Source: a virus (taxonomy: Duplodnaviria; Caudoviricetes). Taken from it: 64,000 nucleotides of DNA. A model generated the notes under the pieces. That model was not told where the DNA came from, ran no database searches, and saw only the letters and a program-made list of their open reading frames with translations. Below are positions 2,776 to 50,872 of the stretch, in pieces; positions within the stretch are counted from its first letter, which is position 1, and each line of letters starts with the position of its first letter. Position numbers and translations under genes: made by a program. The stretch covers positions 2,117 to 66,116 of the IMG/VR virus record IMGVR_UViG_3300032233_002306; one strand, 5' to 3'.

Positions 2776-3146
2776 TGAATATATTTGATCATATTAAGAA
2801 TATCACAACTAATAAAGGACCATATCTAGGTGACGAAGGTTGGAATAATTGGATGATCAATCGTTATCTAAGTATGGATCCTGATTATTGTGAGGTAGTA
2901 AATATAGTACAAAAGAACACTTGGCAGATGAAAGGTGAGTATCTTTATAATCTATATAGAGATCTTATTCCTCAACAATATAAGTATCTTAAATATATTA
3001 AGGCTAAAAATAAAAAGGAATATAAAGCCGATCAAGTAGAAGCAGTAGCTACTTATTATGAAGTTAGTAAACATGAAGCCAAAGAATATATTAGTATGCT
3101 TCCTAAAGAAGAACTAGAAAACATAATAAATCAAATCAATGGGTAA
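2775..3146 (+). CDS. Clamp-loader small subunit (gp62-like)
   Basis: W.INRYLSM...Y.KYIK pattern; lies near the gp44-like gene. Confidence 0.7.
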   Translation: MNIFDHIKNITTNKGPYLGDEGWNNWMINRYLSMDPDYCEVVNIVQKNTWQMKGEYLYNLYRDLIPQQYKYLKYIKAKNKKEYKADQVEAVATYYEVSKHEAKEYISMLPKEELENIINQING

Positions 3147-3420
3147 GTATATAGACAGTGCTAAGGCATATAGAGAATATTTAACTTATATGGAACAACA
3201 AATGGAAGATACACCTAAACTAGACTCGATTGTTACTTCAATTATAGATCAATTTACAGCTCGTGCTAAAATGGGTAAGAAAAAATATGGTGTTGATTTA
3301 GATCGTACTGATCTATCCTTATTAGATTGGATCGAACATGCTAAACAAGAACACATGGATGCTATTCTATATTTGGAAAAAATAAAACAAGAAATCCTTG
3401 GCAAAGAAAAAGCTTTCTGA
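3139..3420 (+). CDS. MazG-like all-alpha NTP pyrophosphohydrolase
   Basis: KKYGVDLDR.DLSLLDWIEHAKQEHMDAILY pattern. Confidence 0.55.
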   Translation: MGKYIDSAKAYREYLTYMEQQMEDTPKLDSIVTSIIDQFTARAKMGKKKYGVDLDRTDLSLLDWIEHAKQEHMDAILYLEKIKQEILGKEKAF

Positions 3421-25381: not shown

Positions 25382-25467
25382 GCCCCGGTGGTGGAATTGG
25401 TAGACACGCAAGACTTAAAATCTTGTTCGCGTAGCGAGTACGGGTTCGATTCCCGTCTGGGGCACCA
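25382..25467 (+). tRNA. trnL: tRNA-Leu(UAA)
   Basis: GCCCCGG/CTGGGGC acceptor; CAAGA-CTTAAAA-TCTTG anticodon arm; long variable arm; GGTTCGATTCC; encoded CCA. Confidence 0.96.
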
Positions 25468-25796: not shown

Positions 25797-26182
25797 GGGG
25801 CATACCGGTATCGATTCAGATGTTGAGGTAATATTACATGCAGGCGTTTGGTAGAGTCGCCTTAGAAAACTGCAAACAATAACTGACGAAATGTCAACAA
25901 TGACCTTCGACGACCTTATGGCGTTCGTAGGCGCCGACTACGCTTTAGCAGCCTAGTCCGCAAACGGGTGTGCGTAACCTAGGAACAGAATACCACCGAG
26001 TACTCACAATCGACTCGCTAAATAAGGACTGTGGATTAGTTTTATCTGTAGTCATAAAACAGATTGGTGGAAACGACCATAAAGGTCAGCCCTACTGATC
26101 AGAAGTAATTCAGATCTAAGCATGTGAGACGTTAATATTACTGTCTCTTCTGAAGACCTGGGTTCGAATCCCAGATGCTCCA
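25797..26182 (+). ncRNA. ssrA: tmRNA; tag ORF 25885-25956 (A)DEMSTMTFDDLMAFVGADYALAA*
   Basis: GGGGCAT/ATGCTCC-A acceptor with G3:U70; GGGTTCGAATCCC T-arm; GTAATATT/AATATTAC and ACATGC/GCATGT helices; ATAACT before the resume codon; YALAA end. Confidence 0.93.
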
Positions 26183-26280
26183 CTATTTTTTTATATTTAT
26201 GGATGTAGAGAAAACAAGGTTGTATATGAAGATATACAGCCTTTTTCTGTTTACACAATTAAAAATTAAAAATTAAAAAT

Positions 26281-33962: not shown

Positions 33963-34361
33963 ATGAGAACAGAAGAAGAACGCCTCGCACATTACAGAGT
34001 AGCATTTTTAGAGAAAGTTAAAAAATGGAAATGGGATGTTGTTGAGGAATGTACCTATAAACAACGTGGTCGTAAAGCTAAAGTAACAACTCGACCCGAA
34101 TCAAAACCAAGAACTAAATTAGAACAAAACGCATTTGCTTATAACTGGATAAAATAATAAATTATGAATAAGTACGAAGCATTAGGTGGTAATTATTTTG
34201 GATTTGAATTATTTGAAGAAGTATTTAAAGTAATTAATGAACGTGGTTATAGTAATCAAGAACAAGCGTTTAAAGCAGGTGTAGCAAGTGCTGAAGCTGC
34301 TGTAAGACGTTTACGTGAAGAATATTATGAAACCATATCTAAATCAATGCCAATGGAATGA
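33963..34361 (+). CDS. Two small hypothetical ORFs (33963-34157, 34164-34361)
   Basis: ORF track, operon packing. Confidence 0.45.
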
Positions 34362-34996
34362 TATTTATAGGTATGAAATACCTACTAATATTACTCCTAC
34401 TCATCAACACAGCATTCGCTCAAGACACTATCACACTTGTACATAAAGCATATAAGACAACTTATAGCAAATCAAAACAATATCCTGTCAAGGTTGAATG
34501 GTGGGTAACTAAAGCAGCACTAACATGTCCTGTCAAGGCTAAACGTGGTGATAAATTTATTCCTGATCCTAAATTACCGCTTGAAACCAATTTACAATCA
34601 AGTTATACAGGAGCTGGATTTGATAGAGGTCATAATTTTCCATCAGCAGATGCTGCTTGTGATCAAATAATAAATGACGAGTCATTTTACTTCAGTAATA
34701 TGACAGCTCAATATCCACAATTAAACAGGGGTGATTGGAAATCATTAGAATCAATGACGCGTGACGCAGCACTTAAAGATGATTCTGTTCATGTTTGGTG
34801 TGGTTCAATTGGAGTAAGTAAGAAAATAGGAACTGTATCTGTTCCTGTTCAGTGTTGGAAGATAATTTATACTAAAAAGACAAATGAATGGTTAGCATTT
34901 TTATTTGAAAATGACACATCAAAAGCAGACGGACTTAAAAATAATGAAGTTGAAGTAAAGTTGATTGAGCAAATTACTGGTTTTAAATTCAAATAA
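34358..34996 (+). CDS. Secreted DNA/RNA non-specific endonuclease (NucA/EndA-like)
   Basis: Signal peptide; DRGH; FYFSNMTAQ...LNRGDW..LE. Confidence 0.9.
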   Translation: MIFIGMKYLLILLLLINTAFAQDTITLVHKAYKTTYSKSKQYPVKVEWWVTKAALTCPVKAKRGDKFIPDPKLPLETNLQSSYTGAGFDRGHNFPSADAACDQIINDESFYFSNMTAQYPQLNRGDWKSLESMTRDAALKDDSVHVWCGSIGVSKKIGTVSVPVQCWKIIYTKKTNEWLAFLFENDTSKADGLKNNEVEVKLIEQITGFKFK

Positions 34997-44166: not shown

Positions 44167-45505
44167 TGAATCAACAAGAAATTATTAATGAAGTAAATGT
44201 TTTGATTGAAGGTAGTGGATGGGTAATTGATGATTATGATGGAATGGATGGTTTTGATTACGTAACAATTCGTAAACCATCAAATTAAAATGTGGTCGGG
44301 CAAGTCCCGACCACTATCTTCATCGAAATTAAAAATTATGAAAGTAAAAGATTTGATTGAACAATTGAGTAAATTTGATCCAGAAACAGAAGTATTAGGT
44401 TCTTGTGTTGACCCATCAGATTTTGTTTATAAAGTACCTGTTAAAACAGTTATATTAGATAACCCATTTGATTCAAATGGTTACTCTGGTGTAGACGGTT
44501 CTGAAGTAGATTGGGATTTACACTACTATGAAGACGAAGACATGGATGAACCAGAATATGTTGGTCCAAAAGTTGTATTGATTAATTTAGGTGATGTGTA
44601 AACATCACCTTTTTCTGTCACGGTTTTTTGTGTATATTCATTCAAACAAAAATTAAACGTATGTTAACAGGTTACCAAAGACAATTGTTCAGTGAATTAG
44701 TTAATTTGAATTGGGAAACAGACCAGAATTATCCCCAGACCGTTAAAACAGCTTTGATCAATGAGTATTGGAGGGTGAGGAAAGAATTGGAGGATGATAT
44801 GGGTAAGGATGAGTATAGTAGGTATATTAACGGGATGAGACAAATGTTTGCTCCAGTAGGTGGATATGGGGATGAGAGTCCAGAGGAAGTAGAGCGTATG
44901 TACGCTTCGATTTAATAAAATGTGGCCGGGCGAAGCTCGGCCACTATTTTTGTATAAATAAAATTAAAATTATGAAATTACAATTAACAAAAACCGCCAA
45001 GCAGGAGTTAAAAGCAATTAACCTTAAATTAGATAAAACTGAAGGCGAGTATTATGATAAGATGAGTAAACGAGAGCGCCTAGTATCAGATGCAATGTTA
45101 TATGTTGATGATGCTTATGTAAATAATAAATTTAAACGTTTAGATAACTGGTGTAAACGTACAGGCGAAGGCGAATATACTGAAGATTATATGATGAATG
45201 TTAAACGTAAGGTAGGTAAAATGATAATGGAAGATATAATTACAATAGTAGAATAATAAAATGTGGCCGGGCAAAACCCGGCCACTATCTTTATTCAAAC
45301 AAAAATTAAACGTATGGCTAATATGGGTTATTGCAGATTCGAAAACACACTTAGAGACCTCAGGGATTGTTACAGCAACATGGATAGTGATGATTTGAGC
45401 CAATCAGAGTTTTATGCACGTAAACAAATGATTGAGTTGTGTTGGGATATTTACAGTGAATATTGTAATAATATCGATGATGAATTTGAAGACGAGTCAG
45501 AATAG
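44167..45505 (+). CDS. Small acidic early ORFs (about 44167, 44338-44601, 44651-44915, 44972-45256, 45314-45505)
   Basis: Each preceded by a promoter/hairpin unit. Confidence 0.55.
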
Positions 45506-45577: not shown

Positions 45578-45859
45578 ATGTCAAACAAAAAAGCAACAAC
45601 AAAAGGTAAAGAGACAGGAAAAGGTTCAAAAGGTCGTCCAACAGTAGCAGGTTCAGCTCGTCAAGCTCGTCTCGCAGCCAGAGAAGCCCGTGTAGCAGCA
45701 GGTGGTGAGGTTAAGCGTGGTAGACCAGCAGTACAAACCAGTGCTCGTCAAGCTAAACTCGCAGCACAAGCAGCCCGAGTAGCAGCAGGTGGAACTATTA
45801 AGCGTGGTCGTCCAGCAATTAAAAAGGTAGATGAGGTAGTAGCCGAAGTGGCTGCTTAA
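45578..45859 (+). CDS. Ala/Arg-rich protein with three GRP motifs and an internal duplication
   Basis: SARQARLAAREARVAAGGEVKRGRPA / SARQAKLAAQAARVAAGGTIKRGRPA. Confidence 0.7.
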   Translation: MSNKKATTKGKETGKGSKGRPTVAGSARQARLAAREARVAAGGEVKRGRPAVQTSARQAKLAAQAARVAAGGTIKRGRPAIKKVDEVVAEVAA

Positions 45860-46960: not shown

Positions 46961-47007
46961 TTTGTATTGTCACAATTAATTGTGTATATTCATCCAAATT
47001 AAAACAT

Positions 47008-47193
47008 ATGAAATATCTAGTAATTGATTTTTTTAACGGTGATTATTTTATTACAGAGGAAACAACAATTGATGAGTTAGTTAATGCGATGTATAATGAT
47101 AGTGAAGAATTTGATTTAGATAAAGCAAAAGAATCATTTTTTGATGCTTATGATGTGTTTGAGATTAAAGGTGAGTTAGTAAAGGTGAATTAG
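47008..47193 (+). CDS. Small acidic hypothetical protein
   Basis: Own promoter (TATATTCA 46985). Confidence 0.6.
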   Translation: MKYLVIDFFNGDYFITEETTIDELVNAMYNDSEEFDLDKAKESFFDAYDVFEIKGELVKVN

Positions 47194-47214
47194 TTTTTTG
47201 TACATCAGATGAAT

Positions 47215-47240
47215 GTGGGTGGTCAGAAATGATCACCTAC
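47215..47240 (+). repeat. 26-bp hairpin/promoter repeat, left copy
   Basis: GTGGGTGGTCAGAAATGATCACCTAC; 25/26 identical to 48458-48483. Confidence 0.85.
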
Positions 47241-47260
47241 ATTTATATAAATTAAAAATT

Positions 47261-47416
47261 ATGGATGAAAATGTATGTTTTATTGATTTGGAAAATGATG
47301 AATGTGAAGGTTATTGGATAAGTAAGGATGAATTGATGATTGATGAAAATGTGATTAGTAAAGGTAAATTTGAAATTGAAGGTGATGTGTTTAATTATGT
47401 AAAAATATTTTATTAA
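47261..47416 (+). CDS. Cytosine-free gene 1 (51 aa)
   Basis: MDENVCFIDLENDECEGYW...; no C in the CDS; no A/P/T/H/Q. Confidence 0.75.
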   Translation: MDENVCFIDLENDECEGYWISKDELMIDENVISKGKFEIEGDVFNYVKIFY

Positions 47417-47473
47417 TTATTAGTTTAATTAAAATTAATATTGTATATTTATATAAATTAAAAATTATTAATT

Positions 47474-47728
47474 ATGAGAGTAGAATTAAAATTAAATGAA
47501 TTAGATGAAATGTTTAGTAAGTGTGGTAATGGAGTGTTTATTATGTGTATGAGTAATAGAGGGGATGAAATAGATAGGTTTAGGATTTGTAGAGAGAGTT
47601 GGAAATTAGGTAGTAGAGTGAATTGGGTGAAGTGTAAAAAAATATTGAATAAAAAAGGTATTGAATTTGTGGAGGGTGAAAGTGGATGGGGAATGAGAAT
47701 GAGTAGATGTATTGATTTTAATTATTAA
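47474..47728 (+). CDS. Cytosine-free gene 2 (84 aa)
   Basis: No C in the CDS; own promoter and leader. Confidence 0.8.
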   Translation: MRVELKLNELDEMFSKCGNGVFIMCMSNRGDEIDRFRICRESWKLGSRVNWVKCKKILNKKGIEFVEGESGWGMRMSRCIDFNY

Positions 47729-47788
47729 AATAAATTAGTTTAATTAAAATTAATTATGTATATTTATATAAATTAAAAATTATTAAGT

Positions 47789-48058
47789 ATGAAAAGTAAT
47801 TATGATTTAGTTTTAGAAGTATTTAAGAGTTATGAGATGGATATTGTATTGGAAGATTTTAAGAATAGTTTTATTGAAGGTGAGAATATAAGTAGAAAAG
47901 ATTATGTGATATTTTGTAGTAAATATGTAGATGATGCTGGTGAAGGATATTATATTGATTTAAATTGGAAGTTTATTGAGAGTGGAGGTGATTTGGAGTT
48001 AATTAATAGGTTGGATAGTGGGGATGATAGTTGGAGAGATGAATTTAATGATGAATGA
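47789..48058 (+). CDS. Near-cytosine-free gene 3 (89 aa)
   Basis: Single C at 47937 (Ala GCT). Confidence 0.8.
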   Translation: MKSNYDLVLEVFKSYEMDIVLEDFKNSFIEGENISRKDYVIFCSKYVDDAGEGYYIDLNWKFIESGGDLELINRLDSGDDSWRDEFNDE

Positions 48059-48117
48059 AAATAAATTTGATTGGTAAGAATTAATATTGTATATTTAATT
48101 AATTAAAAATTAAAGAT

Positions 48118-48288
48118 ATGAGTAAATTAAAATTTAGTGATGGTGAGGAATTTGATTTGGGTGGGCCTTTAAGGGTGGAAGAACGAAGTGATGGATGGTA
48201 TGTCTTAGGGGAAAATAGAATGATGGCTGTGGCTAGTCAGAGTGAAGGTCTTAAATTAATTGAAACATTAAAACAAGAATATTTATGA
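48118..48288 (+). CDS. C-poor gene 4 (56 aa, not in track)
   Basis: MSKLKFSDGEEFDLGGPLRVEERSDGWYV...; own promoter. Confidence 0.7.
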   Translation: MSKLKFSDGEEFDLGGPLRVEERSDGWYVLGENRMMAVASQSEGLKLIETLKQEYL

Positions 48289-48449
48289 ATTTAAGTTTAA
48301 AAGATGTAAATGATCTTTATTATGTAGTAGGTAGAATGATGCAGGTGGATAAGAAGGATAGGATGTTTATTAGTGATGAGGAATTAGAGGTGTTAAGTGA
48401 AAAACTGGTGGAATTAATTGAGGTAAAGTACGAGGAAGAAAATTATTAA
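48285..48449 (+). CDS. C-poor gene 5 (54 aa, not in track)
   Basis: ATGA overlap with gene 4; four C's in 165 nt. Confidence 0.65.
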   Translation: MNLSLKDVNDLYYVVGRMMQVDKKDRMFISDEELEVLSEKLVELIEVKYEEENY

Positions 48450-48457
48450 TAATAAAA

Positions 48458-48483
48458 GTGGGTGGTCAGAAATGATCACCCAC
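48458..48483 (+). repeat. 26-bp hairpin/promoter repeat, right copy
   Basis: GTGGGTGGTCAGAAATGATCACCCAC. Confidence 0.85.
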
Positions 48484-48508: not shown

Positions 48509-48646
48509 ATGAAACCAACACGCGAACTTGATTTCACAATCCCAGCAATTGCACTCCTATTAATCCTCATCCTGGCAGCTACTAGTTGCTCACCTAATGG
48601 ATACGGTTGCCACGGCCGATCTAAAATCATCACCCGCGTACGATAA
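48509..48646 (+). CDS. 45-aa lipoprotein (not in track)
   Basis: MKPTRELDFTIPAIALLLILILAATSCSPNGYGCHGR...; lipobox ATSC. Confidence 0.65.
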   Translation: MKPTRELDFTIPAIALLLILILAATSCSPNGYGCHGRSKIITRVR

Positions 48647-50356: not shown

Positions 50357-50872
50357 TTAACGGGTCTGTTGTTCAATCTTCTCCACAATCAGGCAGTTTG
50401 TAAAGTCCCTACCCAAATCCTCAATCACACGCTGTGCCGTCACACTATCGACATGAAACATCTCCCTATTATCAGCTACTCTATATTCACTCAGATGTTC
50501 ATGTACTCGTTGTTCTAATATGCGTGAGGCATAACATTTTAGTGCCCAAACAGGCACCCATGGCGTAGGAATACCAGTTGCTCTATTAATATCACGCGCA
50601 CGTTTTACTGGGGTGTCGGTAGTCATCCCTATCTTTACCATACCAGGCATTGATTTATTCACTAACACATACACGTATTCCATTGCACGTACACCACCCG
50701 ATGAGTCTATTACGGGTTCTTTTAAGTATAGTATATCTTCCCATCCTTCCTTAAATCCAGGATCGGTAGTAGGTACTAATGCAAAATGAGTTGCAGAATT
50801 AAATTCTCCCGGTTTCAGCCGTATGTAGTATTGGATATCCTCTATTGGTATGCGAGTAAAATTACTTTTCAT
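50357..50872 (-). CDS. T5orf172/GIY-YIG (MUG113-like) domain protein
   Basis: YVYVLVN.SMPGMVKIGMT...RA.DI..ATGIP...LEQRVH..L...R...REMF. Confidence 0.85.
   Translation of the reverse strand: MKSNFTRIPIEDIQYYIRLKPGEFNSATHFALVPTTDPGFKEGWEDILYLKEPVIDSSGGVRAMEYVYVLVNKSMPGMVKIGMTTDTPVKRARDINRATGIPTPWVPVWALKCYASRILEQRVHEHLSEYRVADNREMFHVDSVTAQRVIEDLGRDFTNCLIVEKIEQQTR

Follow-up and report, generated by a model that had tools for sequence, protein, structure and literature searches.

Published abstracts describe, in the T4-type phages RB49 and phi1, promoter–early stem-loop (PeSL) cassettes in which each small non-essential open reading frame (ORF) follows a stem-loop joined to a strong early promoter of host type (PMC2839356, PMC4122927); their gene content is exchanged between close relatives, and mini-circles occur (PMC2839356). 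Intense skews that recode genes are known in print as GRINS, summarized in their published report as repeats inside large polyketide synthase and other genes, especially widespread in Streptomyces, that promote gene conversion (PMC8256042). Here we analyze a 64,000-nt stretch of viral DNA (positions 2,117 to 66,116 of the IMG/VR record IMGVR_UViG_3300032233_002306; hereafter the window), in which a block of five small early genes begins with 696 nt that contain no cytosine on the + strand. The record is a single virus contig of 66,116 bp with a CheckV completeness of 39%; its source is an uncultured T4-type phage related to Flavobacterium Immutovirus phages, and the host genus is probably Flavobacterium. 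Comparison with related loci shows that these mobile early genes are held free of C by purifying selection over the span that is probably transcribed.

The block looks like a mobile PeSL-type early-gene cassette. It lies in a T4-type myovirus, its units, judged by sequence, combine a predicted early promoter with a stem-loop, and its small ORFs are swapped between relatives; as in RB49 and phi1, near-identical promoter/stem-loop units bracket it, and the bracket recurs in another slot. It departs from those cassettes in its base exclusion, which the published PeSL abstracts do not mention, and in its promoters, which are of the Bacteroidota −33/−7 type where those of PeSLs are of the sigma-70 type. 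With GRINS, as summarized in that report, it shares an intense strand skew that recodes protein-coding sequence, but it is a unique cassette with an AT skew near 0, in which one base is wholly lost and the limits fall at a promoter and a terminator.

Purine loading (Szybalski’s transcription-direction rule) and transcription-linked GC skew are modest statistical biases that leave more G than C on the mRNA-sense strand. The cassette shows the same excess, within an early region of positive GC skew, but here one base is absent over 0.7–2 kb, five amino acids are given up, and only particular gene families are affected. Messages without ACA resist MazF, as in the single-protein-production system, and G-less and C-less transcription cassettes exist in the laboratory; these designs share with the cassette the principle that a message without the target letters is immune to an agent, or can be transcribed minus one nucleoside triphosphate (NTP), whereas the cassette is natural, does without one base altogether and has kept this state over a long divergence. 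Prokaryotic viperins (pVips), in work ascribed to Bernheim et al. in 2021, reportedly make 3′-deoxy-3′,4′-didehydro-cytidine triphosphate (ddhCTP), to our knowledge alone among immune products in halting RNA synthesis wherever C is incorporated. A transcript that contains no C would escape the effect of ddhCTP, a link that is purely logical. Literature searches on cytosine-free or C-less phage genes, on escape from ddhCTP, and on deazaguanine together with the template strand returned no description of such a locus, in agreement with the initial annotation, made from the DNA letters alone, which knew of no description of such base-excluding genes.

That annotation had drawn attention to the tract, and base counts confirm what it read from the sequence. 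On the + strand, 47241–47936 contains 0 C, 152 G, 263 T and 281 A, and the 925 nt from 47241 to 48165 contain 1 C, 213 G, 347 T and 364 A; the sole C, at 47937, belongs to a GCT alanine codon of ORF3. At the C content of the whole window (14.05%), log10 P is −45.8 for a 696-nt C-free run, matching the earlier estimate of about 10^-45 at roughly 14% C, and −58.6 for 925 nt that contain no more than a single C. The longest other C-free run in the 66,116-bp record measures 85 nt, and the whole record contains no comparable run for A, G or T. The AT skew over 47001–48000 is 0.014 and A is not depleted in the tract; GC skew is positive over the entire early region of the phage, and T, Cys and Trp are enriched in the C-free genes. 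The three leading ORFs have the predicted lengths of 51, 84 and 89 aa, encode Ser only by AGT, Arg by AGR and Leu by TTR, and contain a single Ala, while genes 4 and 5 are C-poor, also as described. The last C upstream of the tract (47240) is indeed within the −7 box of a promoter, as the third base of TACATTTA.

Searches with the neighboring gene, the hairpin and ORF2 as queries recovered the same cassette in independent IMG/VR and metagenome contigs from other samples, and a sequencing or assembly artifact is therefore rejected. In locus L001 (IMG/VR 3300032327_001032), the same hairpin pair encloses five genes, all C-free, with a run of 1475 nt. L021 and L022, from two other samples, have six C-free genes in runs of 1665 and 293 nt, and the metagenome contig L036 has a run of 1221 nt. 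L013 (3300017917_002819; 307-nt run) has the same hairpin pair around one C-free gene, the ORF3 homolog 3048–3293, in a different slot, between homologs of window genes 45263 and 46176. Gene content is only partly common to these cassettes, with five genes in the window, five in L001 and six in L021.

The exclusion also persists outside the block. In more distant phages, the homolog of ORF2 (45–62% identical) forms a stand-alone unit of ~230 nt with 0–3 C, flanked by genes of ordinary C content that have the same promoter type. When 15 ORF2 genes are aligned, 120 of 222 ungapped columns are variable but only 4 ever contain C, as against 82 of 139 variable columns in a neighboring gene family (Fisher P = 4.5 × 10^-24). 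Protein families drawn from a 5.8-billion-protein collection comprise 28 ORF2 and 18 ORF3 members, down to 53% identity, in which Pro, His, Gln, Thr and Ala together make up 1.0% and 0.26% of residues, respectively, compared with 19.7% in small ORFs of ordinary type at the same loci. A profile search, run exhaustively over 1.84 billion representatives, returned only 12 clusters, the remote ones also nearly without these five amino acids, and neither this nor the other searches found a homolog of ordinary composition. The check proposed in the initial annotation, whether homologs keep the exclusion while their proteins diverge, thus came out in its favor.

Codon usage tells the same story. Ser, Arg and Leu occur at normal frequency but only through AGT, AGA/AGG and TTA/TTG, and 11 of 1858 codons end in C. 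The retention of Ser through AGT, with no stop codons created, argues against a burst of C-to-T change, which would destroy Ser codons and create stops. What C there is in ORF2 genes falls mostly at one conserved His codon (CAT) beside a GGC, so C can persist where the protein needs it. Because the exclusion follows gene families into other genomes and slots, selection rather than local mutation accounts for it. A natural recoded/unrecoded pair is also available: L021:5316–5507 encodes a 63-aa C-free paralog of an ordinary early gene family (window copy 44290–44601, 12.8% C), in which the TDPTDYTY motif is exchanged for residues that need no C.

The limits of the constraint fit those of a transcript, or equally those of the template strand beneath it. 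The transcription start is inferred from the promoter consensus, and the position of the −7 box upholds the earlier observation that the purge begins at about the likely start. In stand-alone units, C is tolerated in the −7 box and at about −2/−3; past the putative start none appears until the 3′ arm of the terminator hairpin just beyond the stop codon. In multi-gene cassettes the internal promoters, 5′ leaders and spacers are C-free as well; the internal promoters, which transcription from upstream would cross, have lost the cytosines that stand-alone units keep. The constraint covers the likely transcribed span, most strictly toward its 5′ end: where multi-gene cassettes contain any C, it is always distal, with the first C of the window cassette at nt 697 and the others at nt positions of at least 926 out of 1218, that of L021 at nt 1666 of 1948, and those of L036 at nt positions of at least 1222 out of 1336. 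Such a distribution is expected if one C costs everything downstream, through a stopped or terminated polymerase, unlike editing, where each C costs only its own codon.

Each cassette gene is preceded by a copy of the promoter found before ~30 small genes in the 35–50 kb region, laid out as a TATATT(C/T)A box, an A-rich leader and the ATG (Table 1). Relatives have a TTTGGC box ~21 nt upstream of the TATATT(C/T)A box, a layout that we take to be the −33/−7 promoter pattern of Bacteroidota. The box of the first cassette promoter fits the form TAnnTTT(A/G) of the ~30 early promoters of the phage. Outside the cassette, promoters and leaders carry cytosines, for example TATATTCA-TCCAAATTAAAACATATG, where T or A stands inside it; at internal promoter 2, the cytosines of the downstream consensus (TCCAAATT...AAACATATG) are replaced by T/A. 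The promoters are predicted to be host-type early promoters and the hairpins terminators, and the genes behind them are real, conserved early genes. In G001, a complete genome introduced below, both C-free units (64893 and 59901, − strand; L025:4946–4975) have promoters with TTTAT in place of the GATGT that precedes the −7 box in ~20 other early promoters. Since GATGT has no C, its absence from the G001 promoters is not a by-product of the C ban, and these may form a separate regulatory class.

The two bracket hairpins are near-identical, 26 nt each, and abut −7 boxes; their 20-nt core, GGTGGTCAGAAATGATCACC, occurs exactly twice in the record, at 47218 and 48461. The upstream one probably terminates the gene before it, whose homologs are L001:6676–6858 and L021:4370–4558 (6 C in 189 nt). 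No internal hairpin or terminator was found within the cassette, where hairpins could hardly form without G-C pairs. The ORFs listed for the cassettes of L001 and L021 include none that corresponds to ORF4. Directly past the 3′ hairpin, 48509–48646 encodes a 45-aa lipoprotein-like ORF (signal peptide, LAATSC; 30% C), likewise with no counterpart among the ORFs listed at that position in L001 or L021.

Table 1 Features of the C-free cassette and selected phage-encoded RNAs, in window coordinates.
Feature	Position	Strand	Remarks
Early gene ahead of the cassette, 61 aa, C-poor (9 C in 186 nt)	47008–47193	+	Adjoins the cassette in relatives too
5′ bracket hairpin, GTGGGTGGTCAGAAATGATCACCTAC	47215–47240	+	In spacer of first cassette promoter; predicted fold −19.6 kcal/mol
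−7 box of first cassette promoter, TACATTTA	47238–47245	+	Contains 47240, last C ahead of the tract
C-free run, 696 nt	47241–47936	+	Covers genes, spacers and internal promoters
ORF1, 51 aa, no C	47261–47416	+	Diverged relative of the 80–83 aa first gene in the L001 and L021 cassettes
−7 box of internal promoter 2, TATATTTA	47444–47451	+	
ORF2, 84 aa, no C	47474–47728	+	Founding member of a family nearly C-free wherever found
−7 box of internal promoter 3	47759–47766	+	
ORF3, 89 aa, one C (47937)	47789–48058	+	Second family-wide C-free family
Second C-free run, 228 nt	47938–48165	+	
−7 box of internal promoter 4	48090–48097	+	
ORF4, 56 aa, 10 C in 171 nt	48118–48288	+	Distal, relaxed part of the cassette
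ORF5, 54 aa, 4 C in 165 nt	48285–48449	+	L001 and L021 homologs have 0 C
3′ bracket hairpin, GTGGGTGGTCAGAAATGATCACCCAC	48458–48483	+	Cassette end, cytosines resume; predicted fold −19.2 kcal/mol
tRNA-Leu(UAA) and transfer-messenger RNA (tmRNA; tag ending ALAA), phage-encoded	25382–25467 and 25797–26183		Leu(UAA) is the sole phage tRNA

To see how widely C-poor units are distributed, nine genomes were scanned for 200-nt segments holding no more than 4 C (or G). The present record (G000) has one block of ~1 kb, G001 (complete, 160.8 kb, terminal repeats) has two units, both in a 5-kb early region, and in the cultured Flavobacterium phage immuto_2-6A a single gene, gp143, is C-poor (5 C in 357 nt). 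None occurs in the complete relatives G006 (QueC-negative) and G007, G008, G009 and G011 (all QueC-positive), or in Campylobacter phage CP220. The confinement of the trait to some lineages and gene families counts against causes shared by all hosts, among them Rho, RNA folding and scarce cytidine triphosphate (CTP), and points to a lineage-specific selective agent. As a possible laboratory model we note NC_055915.1 68330–68686 (L200:1831–2187).

The scan also bears on 7-deazaguanine. G001 encodes FolE, QueD, QueE and QueC together with a phosphoribosyltransferase and a MazG-like pyrophosphatase, in a complete gene set that adjoins PolB and RNR (L053:7153–11619; G001 107–112 kb); Pfam gives no TGT match at L053:7153–11619, which suggests a nucleotide-level route or a divergent DpdA. 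The nearest cultured relative of its QueC is that of immuto_2-6A (62% identical), a phage that also has FolE, QueD and QueE. Deoxyguanosine is completely replaced in immuto_2-6A, and CP220 is 100% modified (PMC10516641). Pathway genes were found neither in the 66-kb, 39%-complete record, which does not include the replication module that houses them in G001, nor in G002–G005. Across the nine whole genomes there is no association between the pathway and C-poor units, and since four complete QueC-positive relatives and CP220 have no such unit, the pathway is not sufficient. Of the alternatives that the initial annotation had listed, the G-free template gains a lead in the complete 7-deazaguanine pathway of relatives, but the comparison of whole genomes reveals no link to it.

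We favor, with a probability of roughly 0.45, a pressure that acts during transcription, for which the cassette would be a unit without roadblocks, needing no CTP and offering no template G. The likely transcribed span begins near +1 of the first host-type promoter and extends as far as the 5′ arm of the terminator hairpin at 48458, so that the mRNA would be built of A, G and U only on a template strand without G. RNA polymerase would then never require CTP and never read a template guanine, and the small accessory proteins could still be made when C incorporation is blocked, through CTP shortage or chain-terminating analogs such as ddhCTP, or when template G, through modification or attack, cannot be read. 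This class of explanation is favored by the polarity and by limits that fit those of a transcript. The cassette proteins would probably serve host takeover or counter-defense; the earlier proposal of an early counter-defense module fits in that the block is variable and mobile, as counter-defense islands often are, while its tie to viperin, ddhCTP or CTP depletion found no support.

Several observations weigh against a pressure at transcription. Apart from viperin products, we know of no C-directed defense, and none was found here, viperin included. Every other phage gene has C and G in both strands and would face these roadblocks too, a serious objection to any explanation by defense; the cassette proteins would themselves have to lift the block. 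T4-type phages use the host polymerase, and a host that makes ddhCTP must itself tolerate it. The four complete relatives and CP220 have the deazaguanine pathway without a C-poor unit. The polarity is seen in three related cassettes only, and the distal cytosines of the window are concentrated in one gene, which may have been acquired recently. The cassette proteins have no PHROG or Pfam match and no usable Atlas hit, and the 39%-complete record contains no deaminase, radical-SAM enzyme or NTP-transferase.

A further step would be to see the C-free early genes as the phage’s answer to nucleotide-directed immunity, in which the host blocks transcription at one letter, by chain-terminating CTP analogs, CTP depletion or attack on modified template guanines, and mobile genes that stay readable encode proteins that switch the immunity off; we regard this extension as doubtful. 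Whatever the agent, selection has stripped whole messages of one of four letters, a state that costs five amino acids and has lasted through deep protein divergence. This implies strong pressure on cytidine in RNA or on template guanine during infection of Flavobacterium-type hosts, a pressure for which we found no published account. If identified, it might prove to be an immunity of a kind not seen before, or a known one put to new use, with the cassette proteins as candidate inhibitors, and base-free transcription units would offer a simple sequence signature for finding such genes in other viruses.

Within the transcription-stage explanation, and already counted in its probability, the pressure might come from the template alone: G would be replaced by a 7-deazaguanine derivative, and the cassette template, free of the modified base, would stay readable by an unmodified host polymerase or under host attack. 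G001, complete and with C-free units, carries FolE, QueD, QueE and QueC, and immuto_2-6A, with its C-poor gp143, shares an early gene with the window, yet the QueC-positive genomes and the fully modified CP220 discussed above lack C-poor units, neither the 66 kb of the record nor G002–G005 hold a pathway gene, and all other early genes have template G. We also know of no enzyme that attacks deazaguanine DNA, and on balance consider a template-only cause unlikely.

Slightly less likely is that the finished RNA gains immunity to an agent acting on cytidine, either a C-specific (or YC-, ACA- or GCU-type) endoribonuclease of a toxin–antitoxin or abortive-infection system or a C-to-U deaminase, of host or phage. 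This would equally explain a constraint that is confined to the transcript, goes with the gene and extends to non-coding parts, and the loss of every C rather than of one motif fits single-base specificity; a phage tmRNA would help if many messages were cut. Editing that costs one codon at a time, however, predicts no polarity, whereas C is only distal in the cassettes, and motif-specific RNases could be avoided without losing all C. No deaminase was found in G000 or G001, and no such nuclease was found in the phage; the one nuclease seen, Endonuclease_NS (34358–34996; a DNA/RNA endonuclease), is rejected as the agent, being absent from G001, which is complete and has C-free genes.

Weaker again is optimization against universal features of the host, with no YC (pyrimidine–C) dinucleotides for loading of Rho, no G-C helices and avoidance of the scarcest NTP, for fast and complete transcription and translation. 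The stretch 47241–48165 contains 0 YC dinucleotides compared with 74 in an equal stretch upstream, and its folding energy per nt is about half that of neighboring early RNA (−0.07 to −0.12 versus −0.20 ± 0.04), but both follow automatically from the absence of C. Internal terminators are lacking, GC skew is positive in the early region, the polarity fits Rho, and the C-poor, G-rich composition is that of Rho-evading RNA; the span, however, is densely coding, and stand-alone units of only ~230 nt that end in an intrinsic terminator give Rho little room and still contain 0–3 C. Universal features should act in all relatives, yet the five complete genomes and CP220 have no C-poor unit, neighbors with the same promoter type have ordinary C, and the sacrifice of five amino acids is steep when each site would gain so little.

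An origin by mutation alone, with no selection, is very improbable, whether by strand-specific C-to-U deamination, acting on the non-template strand where it is exposed or on a cassette intermediate in single-stranded form, or by skewed recoding of the GRINS kind. C-to-T change would give the enrichment in T, Cys and Trp, the cassette is mobile and PeSL mini-circles exist, as the published abstract notes (PMC2839356), and intense gene-recoding skews are described in the GRINS summary (PMC8256042); against this, the gene families keep the trait in whatever genome or slot they are found, next to ordinary neighbors with the same promoters, Ser is kept through AGT without new stop codons, the His CAT is conserved long-term, C is allowed just upstream of the inferred start, the AT skew is near zero, and the element, unlike GRINS, is not a within-genome repeat family.

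Other candidates fail on single points. Avoidance of restriction sites, which the initial annotation had also raised, does not explain a one-strand effect that ends at transcription signals; a tRNA or codon explanation is at odds with C-free leaders, spacers and promoters; a replication-origin or R-loop element would not follow genes to other slots and genomes or be so densely coding; cytosine-modified DNA is rejected since the thymidylate-synthase homolog has the dUMP-type PFNIAS motif of an ordinary ThyA, not a dCMP hydroxymethylase; and a CTP drain by a phage sugar pathway finds no nucleotidyl-transferase in the record.

An AlphaFold model of ORF2 (predicted local distance difference test, pLDDT, 86) has an alpha-beta-beta-alpha-beta-beta fold with no significant match in PDB or BFVD, and shows, as far as a prediction can, that folded proteins are possible from a 15-residue alphabet.

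The T4-type assignment of the phage draws on a clamp loader and a baseplate wedge gene in the window and on a Gp23-type capsid gene in both G001 and the closest relative, G003; one early gene is common to the window and Immutovirus immuto_2-6A. Among 50,697 phage records, neither blastn with 7.5 kb nor tblastn with ORF2 gave a match in cultured relatives, a scan of genome contigs with ORF2 gave none either, and the clamp loader has matches below 40% identity throughout in the cultured-phage search. The phage-encoded tRNA-Leu(UAA) and tmRNA could matter if many messages are truncated in infection. Near the early region, the sole sizeable minus-strand gene (50357–50872) encodes a T5orf172/MUG113-domain protein, possibly a homing-endonuclease-like insert. 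Finally, 45578–45859 encodes a 93-aa protein with repeated GRP/KRGRP AT-hook-like motifs; it has an early promoter in front and a homolog at L025:4130–4291.

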